Below are positions 4,438-33,749 of a stretch of DNA of 33,749 nucleotides, piece after piece. Below the pieces are notes generated by a model. It ran no database searches. It saw only the letters and a program-made list of their open reading frames with translations, and had not been told where the DNA came from. A program made the translations under genes and the position numbers. The first letter of the stretch is position 1, and every line of letters begins with the position of its first letter. This stretch comes from a virus, in IMG/VR virus record IMGVR_UViG_3300029708_000027, positions 1 through 33,749 of that record; one strand, given 5' to 3'.

Positions 4438-4680
4438 TTACTTCATTAATTTTGTTTTATAGAACACACAAATGCTTTTGAAATCCTGCTCATCCGATAC
4501 GTACCCCAGTGTTTTACGCGAAAGAAAATTAACGTCTCGGGTAATATCGCGTTGCAACTGGTCTAGAATTTCCTCGGTGTTACCGAACTTATCGTCGCGG
4601 ACATACAGCGCGCCGGACTTGATACCAAAGTACATACCCAAACGGTATTCAATTTCTTTTTTTAAACTTCTCTTTTTCAT
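4438..4680 (-). CDS. Hypothetical small protein
   Basis: 80-aa ORF. The ATG sits exactly 26 nt downstream of a TATCTTTG box. Confidence 0.65.
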   Translation of the reverse strand: MKKRSLKKEIEYRLGMYFGIKSGALYVRDDKFGNTEEILDQLQRDITRDVNFLSRKTLGYVSDEQDFKSICVFYKTKLMK

Positions 4681-4703
4681 GATTTCTGTTTTTTAATTTG
4701 ATG

Positions 4704-5045
4704 CTACAAAGATAACCCTTTTCCCGGTGCGTTGTTTATTTCCTTAACATTTCTTAAGAAGAAACTTATTGCAGCGTCCCTGCTTTCCAAATCATCGATA
4801 ACAAATACTTTGAAGCCTAAAGCCTCTAACTTGCTATGTACTAATAACTGTATCTTAGTTGGCTTCTTTCCTGTGGTCTTTATCTCGGCAAATCCTACAT
4901 ATCCACCCTGGCAAAGTATCATTCTATCCGGCAAACCTTTTACAAAGGTGGATAATAACTTTATTACCCACACTTTTTTTGTTCGGTTAAGCTTCTCGGA
5001 GAATGTGCGCTCTAAATCTTTTTCACTTATTATTTCCTTTGACAT
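4704..5045 (-). CDS. VRR-NUC domain nuclease
   Basis: GLPDRMILCQGGYVGFAEIKTTGKKPTKIQ matches the VRR-NUC core (PD...E.K...Q). Confidence 0.85.
   Translation of the reverse strand: MSKEIISEKDLERTFSEKLNRTKKVWVIKLLSTFVKGLPDRMILCQGGYVGFAEIKTTGKKPTKIQLLVHSKLEALGFKVFVIDDLESRDAAISFFLRNVKEINNAPGKGLSL
4707..4734 (-). promoter_or_regulatory. Bacteroidota-type promoter (class II-like) embedded in the 3' end of the VRR-NUC gene, for 4438..4680
   Basis: Minus strand reads AACAACGCACCGGGAAAAGGGT-TATCTTTG-N26-ATG. It is homologous to the 1965..2006 cassette (GGGAAAAGCGT-TATATTTG). Confidence 0.5.
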
Positions 5046-5781: not shown

Positions 5782-5929
5782 AACACAATAGTATTTTATT
5801 TGTTTTGAACTCATTTTTATAAAACGCCCGTGCCATCTCCACGGTTGGAAACACCCCATCGTCCGGGGTCGGATAATAAGAGGTACGCCCCCCTTCGTTT
5901 ACTGCGATAACTTTTAAGATAGTAACCAT
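5768..5929 (-). CDS. Hypothetical small protein, 53 aa (below the ORF-track cutoff)
   Basis: My translation: MVTILKVIAVNEGGRTSYYPTPDDGVFPTVEMARAFYKNEFKTNKILLCYVNK. It starts 6 nt after the upstream stop and its 3' end overlaps the next ATG by 14 nt. It is an alternative to the long form 5023..5859. Confidence 0.35.
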   Translation of the reverse strand: MVTILKVIAVNEGGRTSYYPTPDDGVFPTVEMARAFYKNEFKTNKILLCYVNK

Positions 5930-5935
5930 TTTAAT

Positions 5936-6139
5936 TTAATTGTTTTCTAAGTTAATACACTCCGTTAGTTCTTGCATGCTCGTTTCTGTCAGTTGACGCG
6001 TGTAAGTCTGTCCCAGCATACCGATAAATGGTTTGCCGTCCACGTACATGATACGCGATACGTGTTCAACGTTGATATACTCTACTTGCAATTCACCCTT
6101 AACTACGAATGTCAGTTCAATAAAATTTCCACTTTTCAT
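5936..6139 (-). CDS. Hypothetical small protein
   Basis: 67-aa ORF preceded by the conserved leader CAATTTAAAAACGAAAGATT-ATG. Confidence 0.6.
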   Translation of the reverse strand: MKSGNFIELTFVVKGELQVEYINVEHVSRIMYVDGKPFIGMLGQTYTRQLTETSMQELTECINLENN

Positions 6140-6151
6140 AATCTTTCGTTT

Positions 6152-6319
6152 TTAAATTGTTAAACCGTAATTTGATATAAATTCTAAAGCTTCTTTCCTT
6201 GTTTCAAATCTTCTGGATAAACTATTTCGGTACAATCCCGTTTCGGCATTTATTATGTTCACTTGAAAAGCTATCCTACCGAATGTTTTTACTCTAACTA
6301 CTTCCGCTCTGTCACTCAT
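6152..6319 (-). CDS. Hypothetical small protein, 55 aa (below the ORF-track cutoff)
   Basis: My translation: MSDRAEVVRVKTFGRIAFQVNIINAETGLYRNSLSRRFETRKEALEFISNYGLTI. Preceded by the conserved leader AAATTTAAAAACAAAAGATT-ATG and the GAACC hairpin cassette. Confidence 0.5.
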   Translation of the reverse strand: MSDRAEVVRVKTFGRIAFQVNIINAETGLYRNSLSRRFETRKEALEFISNYGLTI

Positions 6320-6357
6320 AATCTTTTGTTTTTAAATTTCTGATATATACTATAAAC

Positions 6358-6387
6358 GTTTGCGGTTTTAAAAGGTTCACCGCAAAC
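6358..6387 (-). promoter_or_regulatory. GAACC-hairpin cassette, copy 1 (conserved CGGTGAACCTTT)
   Basis: Arms GTTTGCGGT (6358..6366) and ACCGCAAAC (6379..6387) form 9 bp around the 12-nt loop TTTAAAAGGTTC. The hairpin lies 8 nt after the stop of 6396..6671 and is followed on the minus strand by GTTTATAGTAT. Confidence 0.5.
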
Positions 6388-6395
6388 CTATATTT

Positions 6396-6671
6396 TTATT
6401 CTAAAACGGTTACAACATCATTTAAATTCACAAACCAGTATGTTTTGGCCTCCCTCATTACTATGTCCGTATCACACAGGGCACTCCCTGACCAGCCCAG
6501 GCTCTTGCCGTCTATAATAACGTCGCGCGTGTTATTATAGTTAAACCCTATTACTTCTACTATTGAGAACCTATCAAATACTGGTTTGGCTACGCGTTGT
6601 TCTTGCTCTTCTTTTGGTAGGGCACGCAATTTAACTAATACCTTTTTTCCTACTAATTCTTCTTGTCTCAT
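6396..6671 (-). CDS. Hypothetical small protein (VVG...IVD...GW..SAL family)
   Basis: 91-aa ORF. VEVIGFNYNNTRDVIIDGKSLGWSGSALCDTDI...NLNDV aligns with 1660..1938. Confidence 0.7.
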   Translation of the reverse strand: MRQEELVGKKVLVKLRALPKEEQEQRVAKPVFDRFSIVEVIGFNYNNTRDVIIDGKSLGWSGSALCDTDIVMREAKTYWFVNLNDVVTVLE

Positions 6672-6706
6672 AATCTTAAGTTTTTAAATTGTTATACTAT
6701 AAAAAC

Positions 6707-6734
6707 AACGGATGCTTTGTAAAGGTTCACCGTT
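6707..6734 (-). promoter_or_regulatory. GAACC-hairpin cassette, copy 2 (weaker stem)
   Basis: AAAGGTTCACCG at 6721..6732. Arms AACGG/CCGTT form 5 bp around an 18-nt loop. The hairpin lies 16 nt after the stop of 6751..6924 and is followed on the minus strand by GTTTTTATAGTAT. Confidence 0.35.
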
Positions 6735-6750
6735 ATTGCCTTATTAACTT

Positions 6751-6924
6751 TTATTTTGCTTCGTAGCCCTTGCCTGGCACGTAATGTACAAGGCCCTCCA
6801 TTTGGAGATATGCTATTTGTTTAGCTGCTTCGTTGTATTCGGTCTGTAGGTTCAGCGCATAAATAATATCGTTAAAACTAATAATACCGCTTTCTCTGAT
6901 AAGGTTTAAAATTGAAGTTCTCAT
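6751..6924 (-). CDS. Putative winged-helix DNA-binding protein, 57 aa (below the ORF-track cutoff)
   Basis: My translation: MRTSILNLIRESGIISFNDIIYALNLQTEYNEAAKQIAYLQMEGLVHYVPGKGYEAK. The pattern fits helix-turn-helix plus wing (L..L...G..S..DI...L......A...I..L..EGLV). It has a class I promoter and the conserved leader. Confidence 0.5.
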   Translation of the reverse strand: MRTSILNLIRESGIISFNDIIYALNLQTEYNEAAKQIAYLQMEGLVHYVPGKGYEAK

Positions 6925-6951
6925 AATCTTAAGTTTTTAAATTATTATTAT

Positions 6952-6997
6952 TTCCTTTTGACATTACAAATATACGGCAAATAATGATAGGTTGTAT
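6952..6997 (-). promoter_or_regulatory. Bacteroidota-type promoter, class I cassette, for 6751..6924 and downstream genes
   Basis: Minus strand reads ATACAACCTATCATTATTTGCCG-TATATTTG-TAATGTCAAAAGGAA, with the box at 6967..6974. It is 42/46 identical to 16660..16705. Confidence 0.6.
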
Positions 6998-7063
6998 ATT
7001 TCATTAACACCATTTAAGAAATAAATCTCATTTAGTTATTCTGTTAACTGTTAGTTAACATTT

Positions 7064-7081
7064 GGGGGCTATTACGCCCCC
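7064..7081 (-). terminator. GC-rich stem-loop just after the primase-helicase stop
   Basis: GGGGGC (7064..7069) and GCCCCC (7076..7081) with a 6-nt loop. No clean T-run follows on the minus strand. Flanked by two GTTAAC palindromes (7043, 7054). Confidence 0.3.
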
Positions 7082-7089
7082 CTCTGTTA

Positions 7090-9528
7090 TCACTCGTTAA
7101 CAATACGCTCAAACCCTCGTGCGCGTCCGATACCCATAACGGACTTGGCTTTTGCTGAACGCTGCCACCCTTGTACCTTAGACATGATAGCGGCTATTTC
7201 ACGACTCTCCTTTGCGGTTACGCGCCCTACCTCCATTTCGAACACATCTGTAGCGATTTGCATGGTAGACACGAAGTCCATCTTTTCCAGTGTAAAATCT
7301 TCCGGGTCTACCTTTGTCGCGTCGTATTCCCTAAAGTACATGCGTCGTTCGTTTACGTACATCCGCCTCCAATCTGTTGGCACAAGCATATTCAAATACT
7401 CCTCTACTGATGCAGTACGGGGGTCGGCTTCGTAATGTTCTTCACGCCCTTCCTCGGCAATCGCCTCGGCTTCACGGGATAACAGCGTACTCACTTTTCG
7501 GAAATACATTTGGACTGCCTCGGCCCAAAGCTGGTCTACATAATCGTCGAACCCCTTCTCAAAGATAAGGTGCGTATTGGCGTTCGCCTTAACCTTCACG
7601 GGCAAAAAGCGTCTGCCGCCCGTATCGTCCTTTAGAAATTCGTCCCGGTTGGTCGTACCTATAAAGACGCATTGCCGGGGGAAGTTCTTGGTAACGCGTC
7701 CGTATGCCGGTCTAAAGCTATCCTCTGTTTTAGAGATGAAATTTTTCACGCCCTCAACTTCTGAACGTCTCATCGCTGACAACTCGGCTACCTCCAATAT
7801 CCAATTACCTTGCAACTGTTCAAACGCGTCCTTACCGTCCATACTTGAAAGGCTATCGGAGAACCATTGCTTACCCAGCTTTTGGATGAATGTGCTCTTT
7901 CCTGCGCCCTGCTCGGACTGTAGAACTAACATGCTATCGAATTTGCACCCCTTTTGAAAGATACGCTTAACAGCTCCTACCATCATGATACGGAATGCCT
8001 CACGGGTGTATATGTTATCTTCTGCACCCATGATGTGAATTAAAGCCTTATCAACTCTTTCGATACTGTCCCATTTCAATTTTGTTAGGTATTCCTGCAC
8101 TGGGTGGAAAGAATTCATTTCTGCGGATAACGCTATAGCATCGTCAATCTTTGCCCTATTCGATATGCCATAAATATCCTCGATGTGTTTACGTACGCCC
8201 GAATAGTCCACATCCTGGAAGTCCAAAGAAGTATCTTTCGCGCGCCAAAGAGGTATGCGTGTAACAACCCGGCGTTCTTTGAATAGGTCTCGCGCGATAA
8301 GCCCCTTTAGGTTCGGGTCGTACTTCATTATCAGCCCTAAATTCTTTGCTGATGGTAGGTAAGTGCCGCGCTTATCGGTTTCGAGCTTTGCCATCGCGTC
8401 CTCATACGTTGTTGCTACATCTGTGTACGTCGCTTCCTCTACTTCTATAACGTCATCGAAGTCTTCCATAATCTCCCTGGCCTTAACTGCCAGCATCCGG
8501 GCACGTGCCGCGGCTACCTTTGCGTCCTTGTTTACCAGTTCGTTCATAGCCTCGGTAGAGTTCTTCCTATCCGCGCCCTTATCCAATTTGCCGAACTTGT
8601 GCACGCGTACAAGGTCGTAGGCGTTGAACACGTGGTTACCTTGGATAGGGTCGTTGTTGTGGAATGAATAGGCAAACGTATCATTAAAGGTAAGCATACC
8701 GCCCGAAGTAGAGCCACCCGTATAAGTCCATCTATCATCCTGCTCGGTAGGCTCGTAAACGTCTGATAGGTATTCCGCGATAACCTCGCTAATCGTGTAG
8801 GCTCTACAGAAGTCACCTACGATACCCTCCTTCAATGTGGGGTCTTGTTGTTCTTTAGCAAGCGTCCGGGCTTCGCCCTTCTCGTCCTTGTGGTATGCCC
8901 ATTCGGTAGTATCGCTCCAATCGTCGTACATGCCCAAATACTTCTGCACGTCCAAAGGGTTTTCATTAAATGCAGAGTAATCTATAAACTCATACTCTAC
9001 GTCTTTGGAAACCGACGGGAAAAACATGCAGCGCTCGGGCTGAAAGGTGGTGCGGTCGTACAAGTCGATACCCGTCAACTCGGCAACCTTTCGGGCGATG
9101 GCTTCGTATTGTTCCCCGTCCACTGGTTCGGACAACGGAATGATAACACGGTAACGGAGCGTGTTCGCTTTCGGGTTGTGCTTGTGCGTCCCGTGAATGA
9201 TACACGCGCAATTAATAACCGAGTAGAACGCTTCCGGGAAGTTCTTTTCCCCGTAGTCAATATCAAGCGCCAAAATAGAGCGTTCCCCGATATTGTTTTT
9301 GTTTCTACGGCTACCGAACAACTCACCCCCCATGAATGCGCCTACGTCTTTAATATTACCCTGCTCGGCTTTGCTCGCGCTTATAAACTCCCGGTACGTC
9401 TCATCCGTAACGGTTGCCTTCGCTAACTTCTCGGTCAACTCGTCCCATGAGTAGGAGCGGTTTTTCCATGAAGTAGATTTCGCGCTGCTTGCTGTAGCAA
9501 TTTTAAAAACCATTTTTCGTAAATCCAT
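7090..9528 (-). CDS. Bifunctional primase-polymerase (AEP-like N-terminus) / D5-VirE family helicase
   Basis: 812 aa. The N-terminus carries LALDIDYG (DxD) and IIHGTHKH. The C-terminus carries Walker A SEQGAGKSTF, Walker B-like WILEVAEL and FIGTTN. Located directly downstream of the polymerase gene. Confidence 0.85.
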   Translation of the reverse strand: MDLRKMVFKIATASSAKSTSWKNRSYSWDELTEKLAKATVTDETYREFISASKAEQGNIKDVGAFMGGELFGSRRNKNNIGERSILALDIDYGEKNFPEAFYSVINCACIIHGTHKHNPKANTLRYRVIIPLSEPVDGEQYEAIARKVAELTGIDLYDRTTFQPERCMFFPSVSKDVEYEFIDYSAFNENPLDVQKYLGMYDDWSDTTEWAYHKDEKGEARTLAKEQQDPTLKEGIVGDFCRAYTISEVIAEYLSDVYEPTEQDDRWTYTGGSTSGGMLTFNDTFAYSFHNNDPIQGNHVFNAYDLVRVHKFGKLDKGADRKNSTEAMNELVNKDAKVAAARARMLAVKAREIMEDFDDVIEVEEATYTDVATTYEDAMAKLETDKRGTYLPSAKNLGLIMKYDPNLKGLIARDLFKERRVVTRIPLWRAKDTSLDFQDVDYSGVRKHIEDIYGISNRAKIDDAIALSAEMNSFHPVQEYLTKLKWDSIERVDKALIHIMGAEDNIYTREAFRIMMVGAVKRIFQKGCKFDSMLVLQSEQGAGKSTFIQKLGKQWFSDSLSSMDGKDAFEQLQGNWILEVAELSAMRRSEVEGVKNFISKTEDSFRPAYGRVTKNFPRQCVFIGTTNRDEFLKDDTGGRRFLPVKVKANANTHLIFEKGFDDYVDQLWAEAVQMYFRKVSTLLSREAEAIAEEGREEHYEADPRTASVEEYLNMLVPTDWRRMYVNERRMYFREYDATKVDPEDFTLEKMDFVSTMQIATDVFEMEVGRVTAKESREIAAIMSKVQGWQRSAKAKSVMGIGRARGFERIVNE

Positions 9529-13470: not shown

Positions 13471-13779
13471 TTAACCTTGTTTAACTTTAAAAGTTTTTGG
13501 TGCTATTGAAATAGCATAATCTAAATCTTTTTGGTCTGCCCACCGTACGGTATACCTCTGTTCATCTTTGTAGTATGCACCAGAGCTATACCGGTCTAGC
13601 TTTCTAATAGCTTTAATCTCGTCCATGCTGAATTCCTTTAGAGCTACTAAAAGTTTTTGCATGTCTGTGGAGGTTCTTTCAAGTTCTTTTTTAGTCCATG
13701 TGCGGAATTGATTTTTGTTCCGAAACTTTGTTCTTTCTTGAATCCCTTTCTCTGTTAGAATACCATTGTTACTTTTCAT
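13471..13779 (-). CDS. Hypothetical protein
   Basis: 102-aa basic ORF. The ATG sits exactly 26 nt downstream of a TATATTTG box. Confidence 0.65.
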   Translation of the reverse strand: MKSNNGILTEKGIQERTKFRNKNQFRTWTKKELERTSTDMQKLLVALKEFSMDEIKAIRKLDRYSSGAYYKDEQRYTVRWADQKDLDYAISIAPKTFKVKQG

Positions 13780-13805
13780 ATCGTTTTGTTTTTAAATTGA
13801 TAGTG

Positions 13806-13847
13806 CAAATATAACGCTTTATCTGGTGGGTTGGTTCTTTCGTTAAC
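13806..13847 (-). promoter_or_regulatory. Bacteroidota-type promoter, class II cassette, for 13471..13779
   Basis: Minus strand reads GTTAACGAAAGAACCAAC-N19-TATATTTG-N26-ATG, with the box at 13806..13813 and GTTAAC at 13842..13847. Confidence 0.6.
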
Positions 13848-13852
13848 TTCTT

Positions 13853-15031
13853 TTATGAATTTAATTCCTCGAAGTCATCTATAGTTGGTCTTAATTCTTC
13901 CCTCTTATCGCTTTCGGGGACTAAAGTTGGCAGCCCTTGCGACTTGACTATCAGCCCGTCAAGTGTTGCGGCGAGCGGTTTCTTACCAACCAGGCGTTCG
14001 AGGTCTCCGATACCTTTCAACTTTCTGTTAGTTACGTCCTCGGTAGATAACCCGATGGCCTTTAGGCGTTCTATGGCTGTTTCCGTGTCGTTTATGACAC
14101 GTACCGAGCGACCCTTTACAAGCTTCCACCCCTTGACCTTTTCGCCCCGTGTGGCGGCTTGCATCGCGAATGTCTTAACCGATGCCAGCCAGTCGGTGAA
14201 CATATCGGACTCGCTTAATATATCGCCTATCTCGTCAAGCGTTAATGCCTTGGTGTCCCTGTAGGTCTCGAACTCGTTAACTAAAGCATCTTTCTGTGCC
14301 CTGCATTGTGCTTTGAACTTGCAGAACTTACAATGACTTCCTACTTTTGTTTCCCCTTGTCCTGCCCATGCCTTTTCAGCCGTCGGGCGAAGTACGTGTA
14401 TAGCCCAGTGGGTCAAGTCCCGTGCGGACATCTCGAATACCGAGTAATTGCCTAACCGTACTTGTGCGATGTGCATGCGTACCGTTTCAATCTTGGAACG
14501 GTGCACTGGCTCTAAGGAGTTAAGAACTCCAATAGCGTACATCATCAATTGGCTGTTTTTGTTTGCATCTACTTGTACTCCCTTACCGTATTTTAAATCT
14601 ATGATGTTTAGGACCGTATCGCCTACTATGTCACAGTCACAGCTACCGAAACACTCGGGAACGTATGTGGTTAGGTCGAACTTCCGTTCTATACTCATTT
14701 TAGCACCTTCCTCCAGTTCGTATATGTCACACACGTAGCAAACGTAATCTGTTACGTAGTGTTCCATTTCTGAACTATAATATTTGTTGTTACGTATCTC
14801 ATCGGGTACGGGCAATTCGTCCAATAACGGTAGGTATTCCCCGGCTAAATACTTTTCTATCGCGTGCTCTGCCAACTCGTGCGCTACCGTTCCCTCTTCC
14901 GATGCTGCGCTACTCGTGCTCTCATACGGTTCTTCCAACCGTGCAGACGGTGTGCAGTTAAGCCATCTATGCGAGCTGCTCGGAGAAAGTAGGGCGTGTG
15001 CCCTACTTGTGTGGTCTACTTGTACTTTCAT
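13853..15031 (-). CDS. DUF2800-type PD-(D/E)XK nuclease (Cas4/RecB-like, with a C-terminal Cys cluster)
   Basis: N-terminus HALLSPSSSHRWLNCTPS, nuclease core IIDLKYGKG, and cysteine cluster CKFCKFKAQC. Confidence 0.8.
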   Translation of the reverse strand: MKVQVDHTSRAHALLSPSSSHRWLNCTPSARLEEPYESTSSAASEEGTVAHELAEHAIEKYLAGEYLPLLDELPVPDEIRNNKYYSSEMEHYVTDYVCYVCDIYELEEGAKMSIERKFDLTTYVPECFGSCDCDIVGDTVLNIIDLKYGKGVQVDANKNSQLMMYAIGVLNSLEPVHRSKIETVRMHIAQVRLGNYSVFEMSARDLTHWAIHVLRPTAEKAWAGQGETKVGSHCKFCKFKAQCRAQKDALVNEFETYRDTKALTLDEIGDILSESDMFTDWLASVKTFAMQAATRGEKVKGWKLVKGRSVRVINDTETAIERLKAIGLSTEDVTNRKLKGIGDLERLVGKKPLAATLDGLIVKSQGLPTLVPESDKREELRPTIDDFEELNS

Positions 15032-15908: not shown

Positions 15909-15960
15909 TTGCCTGCAAATACTTTTTTACTTCGTCGATAATAAACTTTTGCTCTTTCAT
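15766..15960 (-). CDS. Upstream frame of a split small gene
   Basis: The ATG at 15960 sits exactly 26 nt downstream of a TATATTTG box. The N-terminus MKEQKFIIDEVKKYLQASARKNKYQVIDAVQEMPTFEGF looks protein-like, while the last ~25 aa look out of frame. Confidence 0.55.
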   Translation of the reverse strand: MKEQKFIIDEVKKYLQASARKNKYQVIDAVQEMPTFEGFILPLLRLYNGRDKIPGKRRGDVYLL

Positions 15961-15986
15961 AACTTTATCTTTTTAAATTGTTGATG

Positions 15987-16028
15987 CAAATATAACGCTT
16001 TTGCAAATACGTTGGTTCACTTGTTAAC
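15987..16028 (-). promoter_or_regulatory. Bacteroidota-type promoter, class II cassette, for 15766..15960
   Basis: Minus strand reads GTTAACAAGTGAACCAAC-N19-TATATTTG-N26-ATG, with the box at 15987..15994 and GTTAAC at 16023..16028. Confidence 0.6.
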
Positions 16029-16241
16029 CTTATTTAAGAAAATAGCTTCCATAAGGTTCTGCATGTGCCCGTATACCATACCGTTGTATTGGTATGCCTC
16101 AAATCTCCCGTTATGGCGTACCTCTGAAAAAGTATCGCTATACTCGTTGCCCGCCTCGTCTATAAATACTAATACGTGGCTCTTCATCTCGAACTGACCG
16201 GCGGTCAGCGTTTCTCTAAAAATTAAATCAATTGCTTTCAT
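16017..16241 (-). CDS. Hypothetical small protein
   Basis: 74-aa ORF preceded by GAACC-hairpin cassette copy 3. Confidence 0.6.
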   Translation of the reverse strand: MKAIDLIFRETLTAGQFEMKSHVLVFIDEAGNEYSDTFSEVRHNGRFEAYQYNGMVYGHMQNLMEAIFLNKVNK

Positions 16242-16587: not shown

Positions 16588-16659
16588 AACTTTATCTTTT
16601 TAATCGTTTATTTCCAATTTAATGTCTTGGTGACCTCCTGCCATCCGGGAAACCCTTGT

Positions 16660-16705
16660 TTCCTTTTGACATTGCAAATATACGGCAAATATCAATAGGT
16701 TGTAT
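16660..16705 (-). promoter_or_regulatory. Bacteroidota-type promoter, class I cassette, opening the early arc
   Basis: Minus strand reads ATACAACCTATTGATATTTGCCG-TATATTTG-CAATGTCAAAAGGAA, with the box at 16675..16682. It is 42/46 identical to 6952..6997. Confidence 0.6.
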
Positions 16706-16796: not shown

Positions 16797-17030
16797 CTGC
16801 ACTGCACAGAAACACACCTAAATTCCTAAACTTTAATATAGGATATAGTGGTTTATACAGCTCGTTCTATAGTGGTAAATGCTATTTTCTCCAGGATAAT
16901 GTTTTACCCCCTTTTTACTGTGCATACTGTGCATTTACATATAATGTATTATAATATAGAGAGTTAGAGTGCACAAAAAACTGCACAGTAGCGATTTTTT
17001 ACTGTGCATCTGTGTCTAAAGAATGTTAAC
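16797..17030. repeat. Junction module, copy A (noncoding, homologous to 33311..33534)
   Basis: Alignable by eye along its whole length with copy B in the same orientation. Carries five TGCACAGTA-type sites, a hairpin, TTGTGC-17-TATAAT on the minus strand, and a conserved CCACTATATCCTATATTAAAGTTTA block. Confidence 0.85.
16982..17008 (-). terminator. Conserved hairpin plus T-run inside module A
   Basis: TGCACAGTA (16982..16990) and TACTGTGCA (17000..17008) form 9 bp around a 9-nt loop. On the minus strand the hairpin is followed by GTTTTTTG. Confidence 0.4.
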
Positions 17031-17033
17031 GAA

Positions 17034-17063
17034 AAATGGAGAACTGTTAACAGCCCTCCATTT
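17034..17063 (-). terminator. Stem-loop terminator closing the morphogenesis/lysis arc
   Basis: AAATGGAG (17034..17041) and CTCCATTT (17056..17063), with an inner CTG-TTAA-CAG mini-stem. It lies 5 nt after the stop at 17069 and is followed on the minus strand by TTCGTT (run CATTTTTCGTT). Confidence 0.55.
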
Positions 17064-33172: not shown

Positions 33173-33180
33173 CAAAGGTA
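33173..33180 (-). promoter_or_regulatory. Bacteroidota-type -7 box (TACCTTTG) opening the morphogenesis arc
   Basis: Minus strand reads GTTGGTTGGTCTGATGCGATTTGTTGCC-TACCTTTG. The leader to the terS ATG is 123 nt and contains GC-rich CGCGAGCGCACACGCGCG. Confidence 0.5.
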
Positions 33181-33310: not shown

Positions 33311-33534
33311 GCACATGTACAGACACACACCTGTTTTCGTAAACTTTAATATAGAATATAGTGGTTTTTATACCCCTCAAAATACACTTTTCTCCAAAAT
33401 AATGTTATACCCCTCTTTTTACTGTACATCTGTACATATACATATAATATATTATAATAGAGAGAGTTAGAGTGCACAAAAACATGTACAGTAGCGATTT
33501 TTTTACTGTACATGTGTACCTAAAATATGTTAAT
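33311..33534. repeat. Junction module, copy B (noncoding, homologous to 16797..17030)
   Basis: Same layout as copy A, but all five motif sites read TGTACAGTA. Conserved CCACTATATTCTATATTAAAGTTTA block and TTGTGC-17-TATAAT on the minus strand. Confidence 0.85.
33482..33515 (-). terminator. Conserved hairpin plus T-run inside module B
   Basis: ACATGTACAGTA (33482..33493) and TACTGTACATGT (33504..33515) form 12 bp around a 10-nt loop. On the minus strand the hairpin is followed by TTTTTG. Confidence 0.45.
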
Positions 33535-33567
33535 TTTAGAGCCCCTTTTTTCTGAATATAAACAAAA

Positions 33568-33601
33568 GCCCAAATCTGACATTTTGTAATCAGATTTGGG
33601 C
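33568..33601 (-). terminator. Rho-independent terminator closing the early arc
   Basis: GCCCAAATCTGA (33568..33579) and TCAGATTTGGGC (33590..33601) form a perfect 12-bp stem with a 10-nt loop. On the minus strand it is followed by TTTTGTTTAT. It lies 82 nt after the stop at 34, counted across the circular junction. Confidence 0.75.
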
Positions 33602-33650
33602 TAATCGCTATCATTTGGTTTGCCTATAGGCTTTCGTAGAGGGCACTATC

Positions 33651-33749
33651 ATACTGCTAACACCTATAGGCAAACCGCTTTCATTATGTCAATTTCCACC
33701 CGAGCGAATCCTTATACCAATACCACGTTTGAACCGTTCCATTCTTGAA
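33651..33749. repeat. Terminal direct repeat, copy 2 (identical to 1..99)
   Basis: Exact 99-bp duplicate of the left end. It contains a redundant copy of the 3' end of CDS 34..444. Confidence 0.9.

Follow-up and report, generated by a model that had tools for sequence, protein, structure and literature searches.

The window analysed here, a stretch of 33,749 nucleotides, carries one short motif in two similarly arranged modules, written with a C in one module and with a T in the other, and the question raised by this locus is what reads the motif and why its spelling is uniform within each module. The window phage is a virulent siphophage of Bacteroides uniformis, and 13 isolated siphophages of B. 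uniformis and B. xylanisolvens are approximately 89% identical to it. Bases 1-99 are identical to bases 33651-33749, an exact terminal redundancy of 99 bp, and the window is therefore a complete circular assembly of approximately 33,650 bp (~33.65 kb). In the deposited records of relatives, terminal overlaps of 141, 127, and 55 bp were recognized as assembler k-mer artefacts and not as terminal repeats in the module, and the modules themselves were either unannotated or covered by spurious ORFs. All long ORFs of the window are located on the minus strand. According to the PHROG scans, the late unit (33112 to 17069, minus strand) comprises the small and large terminase, the tape measure, and finally the lysis genes, and the early/replication unit (16587 to 34, minus strand) encodes exonucleases, a gp2.5-like annealing protein, DNA polymerase A, and an 812-aa primase-helicase, along with a VRR-NUC nuclease, an SNF2 helicase, and a methyltransferase. 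Because all genes are on one strand, the GC skew was monotonic and uninformative on the origin. The Rfam and tRNA scans of the window returned zero matches. Four to five tandem 21-nt repeats were found at positions 1346-1450, within the ORF 1168-1653, where they encode a repeated heptapeptide.

Module A, an iteron array of approximately 225 bp (16803..17029, minus strand), is situated between the lysis genes and the early/replication genes, while module B, an array of approximately 220 bp (33316..33533, minus strand), is situated between the last early gene and terS. They lie about 16.5 kb apart on the 33.65 kb circle and share approximately 79-80% identity over about 225 bp. The pattern TGYACAGW occurred 12 times in the window compared to 2.99 expected, a count reached by none of 100 shuffles, and 10 of the 12 occurrences fell in the two modules, five of them C-type in A and five T-type in B. 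The pattern search placed the C-type sites of module A, with TGCACAG as the main spelling, at 16803-16810, 16917-16924, 16926-16933, 16982-16989, and 17001-17008, and the T-type sites of module B, spelled TGTACAG, at 33316-33323, 33421-33428, 33429-33436, 33485-33492, and 33505-33512. The uniform split over five main sites per module, as first reported in the first-pass annotation, was thus confirmed by sequence and pattern search, with coordinates that had been off by 1-3 nt in places.

Along the direction of transcription, each module consists of an inverted iteron pair, an extra iteron oriented as the second arm, a spacer of 34-35 bp, two oppositely oriented tandem iterons, about 110 bp of conserved sequence, and a distal inverted iteron. 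In module A, the inverted pair (16982..17008) is formed by 9-bp arms at 16982-16990 and 17000-17008 with an A-rich loop (arms TGCACAGTA/TACTGTGCA, loop GCGATTTTT), and in module B (33482..33515) by 12-bp arms at 33482-33493 and 33504-33515 (arms ACATGTACAGTA/TACTGTACATGT, loop GCGATTTTTT); the sequence bears out the earlier description of both stems, in which the C/T difference on one arm is matched by G/A on the other. The AT-rich spacer of module A (16935..16968, 82% AT) is a putative DNA-unwinding element conserved in relatives, and its counterpart in module B is located at 33437..33471 (83% AT). The tandem direct iterons are composed of TGCACAGTA twice in module A (16917..16934, minus strand) and TGTACAG twice with an 8-bp period in module B (33421..33437, minus strand); such a spacing of 8-9 bp is unusual for same-face binding. 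The distal inverted iterons, located by sequence and pattern search at 16803..16809 and 33316..33322 (both plus strand), are spelled TGCACAGAA / TGTACAGAC and not with the ending GTA given for them before.

More sites exist than the five originally laid out, which hold as the main sites in both modules. A degenerate iteron, the GTGCAC box, was found on the hairpin side of the AT-rich spacer in module A (16969..16975) and at 33472..33478 in module B, where it is still C-type, and module B is therefore not purely T-type. A further degenerate site adjoins the hairpin at 17010-17016 in A and 33514-20 in B. The sequence beside the motif, GAGTGCACA, had been taken as an unchanged neighbor, but it is itself a degenerate motif copy that changes with the class in relatives: CTGTGCAC is present in many of them, and in others the degenerate box follows the motif class as GGTCAC, GTGTCA, GTGTAA, or GTACAC. 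Each module bears 7-8 sites, which have opposite orientation across the spacer, two on the hairpin side versus the two tandem ones. The iteron-free block of about 110 bp is strongly conserved. The sequence AACCACTATA is present twice in module A (16845-16885, minus strand) and once in module B, and its first copy in module A, CATTTACCACTATAGAACGAG, resembles the SP6/T7 promoter core. A reading of ACCACTATAGAA in module A as an SP6/T7-type promoter was set aside, since no single-subunit RNA polymerase is encoded in the window.

For comparison purposes, approximately 106 module copies were gathered from 12 fetched relatives and IMG/VR contigs. Both modules were present in all 12 fetched isolated relatives and also in dozens of IMG/VR contigs. 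Orthologous copies exhibited 79-93% identity for A and 80-91% for B, and A compared to B approximately 79%; the duplication that produced A and B is thus older than the split between these phages. TGCACAG is the spelling of A and B alike in most genomes. Variation in the motif is usually genome-wide, with TGCACAG, TGACCAG, GACACAG, and TACACAG as the classes of the close group, and whole-genome switches affect all sites of A and B alike, down to the degenerate box and the most distal iterons. The TGACCAG class is composed of BU183P1, 010200, and 028749, the TACACAG class of seven or eight contigs (29713_29 and others), and the GACACAG class of 011728 (IMG/VR 3300045988_011728, 33,649 bp, a different phage with GACACAG iterons). 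TGTACAG mixed with T[GA]CACAG was found in BU2-1, BU2-2, 023109, and 028098, so the mixing of C- and T-type sites within a module, named beforehand as an observation that would refute the original claim, does occur in part of the relatives. Two sites in module B of BU1-1/BU3-1 are spelled ACTCAG, and in a small number of relatives more than one variant occurs within a module or across A and B (e.g., 024297, 021824, and BU1-1/BU3-1). Nearly all relatives carry the same variant at both junctions. Different specificity at the two boundaries is therefore not conserved as a design, and the module-specific split described in the first-pass annotation proved to be peculiar to the window genome.

Distant lineages keep the two junction arrays with heptamers of their own (TGGCACAG, TGTCACA, TGTAACA, or TGTTCCA). 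For example, the Phocaeicola phage BM127P4, whose primase-helicase is approximately 58% identical, has two junction modules that are 78% identical over 288 bp and use the heptamer TGTTCCA in the same layout, composed of an inverted pair with an A-run loop, an AT-rich spacer, a tandem pair, and distal repeats. Lineages with 71-75% primase-helicase identity use TGTAACA, TGTCACA, or TGGCACAG, and their two arrays are situated about 7 kb on either side of the primase-helicase gene. In the Parabacteroides phage PM708P2, no clear A/B homology was detected, only possible [CT]GTAGA repeats.

When the sites of homologous modules were compared, a check proposed along with the original observation, every site covaried across the approximately 106 copies. 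Sites within a module agreed at 6.15 of 7 positions, compared to 5.57 +/- 0.03 for position-matched sites taken from other modules. All 15 site pairs covaried, including direct repeats unable to base-pair, in an analysis that ignores kinship; none of 2000 shuffles reached the observed value in 14 of the 15 pairs, and 1 of 2000 did so for s3-s4. For instance, s2 and s5 were identical at 6.33 of 7 positions versus 5.76 after shuffling, and s5 and s6 at 6.18 versus 5.65. The rule of one spelling at all sites points to a common trans-acting reader and not to an RNA stem.

The proposed reader is the PriRep-type primase-helicase of 812 aa, encoded at 7090..9528 on the minus strand. Its VapE-like domain matched Pfam PF05272 (E 8e-81), and its ATPase core (residues 394-731) matched SaPI1 Rep1 (PDB 7pds) with an E value of 1e-78. 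The AF2 model had a pLDDT of 87.6, and Foldseek aligned it to about 450 of the ~454 Rep1 residues, including the C-terminal domain (TM 0.80-0.84, E 1e-38). In the predicted structure, the last ~80 residues form a winged helix (7093-7335, minus strand) with a helix at residues 772-784 and beta-strands and wing at 788-808. The wing loop Q789-M798 corresponds to positions 7135-7164 (minus strand), and the hypervariable residues Q789 and 793-795 are located in the wing. A homologue search with the C-terminal domain alone retrieved near-identical fragments only. No copy of the motif is located beside the gene (7090-9528), and the distance to the modules is 7.2-7.5 kb in either direction. The region downstream of the gene (5860-7090) is a hypervariable cassette region whose small genes differ between phages and encode, among others, a 57-aa winged-helix-like, a 74-aa coiled-coil, and a 136-aa lipoprotein-like protein.

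In the search for the reader, the ORFs of the genomes and loci were clustered, and approximately 46 protein families were checked for residues exclusive to a motif class. Such residues were found only in the primase-helicase (three for TGACCAG and one for TACACAG) and were absent in TerS, the DNA polymerase, the SNF2 helicase, and the other families among the ~46; one additional family was discarded, being a spurious ORF over the modules themselves. Whole-protein identity gave no signal with respect to motif class, and no BU183P1 protein was class-specific at that level. The class-tracking residues of the primase-helicase were mainly located in the wing loop (56 genomes). Within these 56 genomes, the wing [KR]R[SA]A[DE]A[KR] occurred with TACACAG in 8/8, GR[RK] with TGACCAG in 4/4, NA[KR]P with GACACAG in 3/3, and NGK with TGCACAG in 29/29 cases. 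The wing [KG]AK accompanied C/T mixes containing TGTACAG in five of five genomes, compared to one of the 51 others (Fisher 1.6e-6). Overall, the wing loop and the iteron class shared an adjusted mutual information of 0.536 with kinship ignored, a value reached by none of 5000 shuffles (56 genomes); the mosaic genomes and the clean negative for the other families offset shared ancestry only partly. Since genomes of the TGCACAG class have several wing types (NGK, GQK, RQI, and KAR), the wing-to-iteron code is not one-to-one. The window initiator has a KAK wing, found only in genomes using both TGCACAG and TGTACAG, which makes it probable that one protein recognizes module A as well as module B as its cognate site.

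We consider it probable that the motif is the iteron of this Rep-type primase-helicase and that the two modules represent a duplicated origin-type element. The primase-helicase, with Pri and Rep fused, would belong to the self-loading initiator-helicases of the SaPI Rep1 type, and its C-terminal winged helix would bind iterons of 7-9 bp, with the AT-rich spacer of 34-35 bp as the likely unwinding element. The modules could be two origins, or one origin and a second high-affinity initiator site, which could either take part in DNA looping or block the fork and so set off concatemer synthesis, a role put forward for SPP1 oriR. Iteron spelling and initiator wing loop co-evolve. From the architecture of the modules, the fold of the protein, and the covariation between the two, we infer binding, function as an origin, and a role for the second copy.

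The position of the modules between transcription units bears on the idea, raised in the first-pass annotation, that the sites are operators of a phage transcription regulator for the early and late units. An intrinsic terminator of the early unit (33557..33602, minus strand; hairpin 33602-33567), with a 14-bp stem followed by a T-run, is located directly upstream of module B. The late unit ends in a terminator-like hairpin identified by eye (17032..17059, minus strand; 17059-17038 plus T5), which lies immediately upstream of module A and is formed by GGAGGGCTG/CAGTTCTCC plus T5; the terminator scan called neither this hairpin nor the inverted pairs of the modules. The only nearby Bacteroidetes-type -7 elements are TAtaTTTG of the early unit (16675..16682, minus strand), about 120 bp downstream of module A, and TAccTTTG upstream of terS (33173..33180, minus strand), about 135 bp downstream of module B. 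With a terminator before it and a -7 element after it, each module thus occupies the interval from the terminator of one unit to the promoter of the following one. Both modules precede the opening gene of a unit, the covariation of all sites shows a trans-acting reader, and repression or insulation of transcription could be a further activity of the initiator, all of which would suit operators. However, the -7 elements are 120-135 bp beyond the modules, and no host-type promoter (TAnnTTTG -7) was found inside them. Moreover, no small DNA-binding protein covaries with the motif class, and the small variable gene after the primase, which in the window encodes the 57-aa winged-helix-like protein, is identical in phages of different classes and unlinked to class. 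An origin is the better fit for an AT-rich core flanked by inverted iterons and for a Rep-type initiator that covaries with them, and we regard the transcriptional reading as improbable. Of the original operator proposal, the part that stands is that a phage factor reads the sites, in agreement with the covariation among sites and with the protein; its transcriptional part does not fit promoters that the sites fail to overlap, and architecture and covarying protein point to origin iterons instead.

Other promoter-like sequences were observed in the early region. A sequence of about 92 nt is present in five copies on the minus strand (1932-2023, 4674-4765, 6934-7025, 13773-13864, and 15954-16045), each with a GTTAAC box and a TAnnTTTG -7 element 25-45 nt ahead of an ATG, and these copies look like an early or middle promoter family sharing an upstream element. 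A stretch of 50 nt containing the promoter of the first early gene (16656-16705) is repeated with 90% identity at 6948-6997, just downstream of the primase-helicase gene.

The spelling of module B raises the possibility of an old duplication that simply drifted apart and whose C/T split has no function. Among the approximately 106 copies, only the window has one uniform variant per module, and its module B is the only one with TGTACAG at all main sites. The T-type hairpin pattern had no match in IMG/VR and four in JGI metagenomes, none of which is this module. One JGI metagenome locus (L226, Ga0163111_10417408) carries at 960-1060 a dense array of the palindrome ACTGTACAGT, which has the T-type word in common with the module and is not homologous to it. 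That the all-T module is unique to the window genome would suit neutral drift, as would the mosaic nature of the modules, in which the hairpin of window module A is BU-like and its tandem pair EMB2-like. Nevertheless, compared to its closest orthologue, module B of BU2-1 (91% identity), window module B exhibits four extra substitutions, all of which create TGTACAG, a result far from random. The motif is also enriched fourfold and restricted to the modules, and the modules are kept across lineages with only 58-75% primase-helicase identity, which makes a neutral origin of the pattern very unlikely. The uniform T spelling of module B is real, non-random, and specific to the window genome, and it stays inside the range of spellings that go with KAK-type initiators. 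The candidates to account for it are directional homogenization, selection for altered affinity, and recombination with an unsampled all-T lineage.

A further explanation takes up the RNA hairpin under structural selection from the first-pass annotation: such selection would maintain the inverted pair as a hairpin of RNA or of single-stranded DNA, possibly a second terminator or a processing signal, and the other copies would be by-products. The stems are more stable than shuffled sequence (z -2.9 and -4.4), with single-stranded DNA folding energies of -8.0 kcal/mol for A and -9.7 kcal/mol for B, and in the window a T-run comes after the hairpin on the gene strand. The arms do covary, as the check suggested for them revealed: 82.8% of cells pair versus 75.3% after shuffling, the covariation score is 0.230 versus 0.107, and eight pairs change on both sides. 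This arm covariation is no stronger than that of non-pairing site pairs, however, and identical base changes are seen at direct repeats and at distal sites, which are unable to pair with the arms. Because the non-pairing sites covary as well, the compensatory change in the arms is one case of the rule of one spelling at all sites. In addition, neither the TGACCAG class (TGACCAG versus CTGGGCG) nor module B of BU1-1/BU3-1 has an intact stem, and EMB-type copies have GGTCTC in place of the T-run. A strong canonical terminator, recognized by eye in the case of A, is already present ahead of each module, and no Rfam match was obtained. We therefore find no support for structural selection on the hairpin as the main cause of the pattern and consider it very unlikely.

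The least probable explanation is that the sites are pac recognition repeats bound by the small terminase, which would agree with the position of module B directly upstream of terS and with the headful pac packaging and circularly permuted genome of the relative EMB2 (PMC9584325) but not with a TerS that is ~95% conserved across motif classes without any class-specific residue, with a second identical array half a genome away, unexpected for a pac site, or with the presence of a better pac candidate, a lineage-invariant motif, in the B junction. This motif, ATGATAG[CT]G, occurs as a pair on the minus strand (33606-33614 and 33644-33652), upstream of module B, in the interval from the last early gene to the terminator. 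Distant lineages with differing iterons have similar motifs, AAATGATAG, at the same junction (L152 ~15085, L154 ~16636, L201 ~19447, and L204 ~18548). Because it is invariant between lineages, the motif is a candidate for a pac or TerS site or for another conserved signal. An inverted repeat of 23 nt (GGTTTGCCTATAGGC...) with a 14-nt loop (33617-33639 / 33654-33676) is situated just past the last early ORF and overlaps the ATGATAG pair.

Returning to the duplicated origin-type element, a more specific and rather doubtful version of it can be formulated, in which the modules act as a working pair. One module would fire, while the other, held by the initiator, would serve as a fork barrier or looping partner leading to the switch to concatemers, and the split into all-C and all-T spellings would set different affinities. 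Diversification of the wing and the iterons could then create replication-specificity groups among co-circulating gut Bacteroides phages, thereby limiting cross-replication or parasitism in co-infection. If the origin reading is true, the cis elements and the initiator are located for building replicons or engineering common gut phages. It would also provide a natural data set on how the wing of a winged helix reads DNA, with approximately 8 wing types versus at least 5 iteron spellings in the close group and more in distant lineages. Within the set of papers searched in full text, none dealt with replication-origin iterons in Bacteroides phages.

When compared to known systems, a first analogy is offered by the satellite phage P4, whose alpha protein unites primase, SF3-type helicase, and, at the C-terminus, a winged-helix domain that binds the origin in a single polypeptide. 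Its octamer iteron (TGTTCACC) is repeated in ori and crr, two separate cis regions that are both needed, and crr is situated 4.5 kb from ori with a different internal layout. The window likewise has its motif in two separate regions and a fused primase-helicase with a winged helix, while P4 alpha was not seen among the top PDB matches of the primase-helicase. A second point of comparison is the Bacillus phage SPP1, a virulent pac-type siphophage whose circularized genome has two similar regions, oriL and oriR, that contain repeats and an AT-rich unwinding element; one initiator binds both, and one of the origins is situated in the late region between transcription signals (PMC6316719, PMC3485210). 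It has been proposed that the replication fork stalls at initiator-bound oriR, giving way to recombination-dependent concatemer synthesis (a theta-to-concatemer switch) with phage recombination proteins (PMC6316719, PMC3485210). Like SPP1, the window has two similar regions of repeats and AT-rich sequence in one phage genome and encodes recombination functions, namely the gp2.5-like annealing protein, the exonucleases, and the VRR-NUC nuclease. In contrast, the SPP1 initiator gp38 is unrelated and works with a DnaB-type helicase and a loader, a type of system for which the PHROG and Pfam scans of the window gave no candidate, finding only the VapE-type primase-helicase and the SNF2 helicase. 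Unlike in the window, oriL of SPP1 lies inside the initiator gene, the SPP1 repeats run in direct orientation, and natural specificity classes have not been reported for them.

A close resemblance in protein and layout concerns the pathogenicity islands of Staphylococcus aureus (SaPIs). Their origins contain 6-12 iterons, each 5-6 nt long, which surround an AT-rich center with two or more per side and in opposite orientation, and which are read by the C-terminal winged helix of Rep, a self-loading initiator-helicase to which a primase is fused in SaPI5 (PriRep) (PMC9371898). The window differs in its host system, a virulent Bacteroides siphophage and not a Gram-positive satellite island, in its longer iterons of 7-8 nt, and in the location of its arrays, 7.2-7.5 kb from the initiator gene, while the SaPI origin is directly downstream of rep. 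It also has two arrays, each with an extra conserved block of about 110 bp and a distal iteron. As in the SaPI system, the window initiator is homologous to Rep (PDB 7pds, 7ola), winged helix included, with a primase fused as in SaPI5 PriRep, its short iterons flank an AT-rich center with at least two per side in opposite orientation, and the iteron spelling is matched to the C-terminal domain, as judged by covariation with kinship ignored. If this reading is true, the SaPI system of self-loading initiator-helicase and iterons extends to virulent phages of Bacteroidales, in a two-site form similar to oriL and oriR of SPP1.
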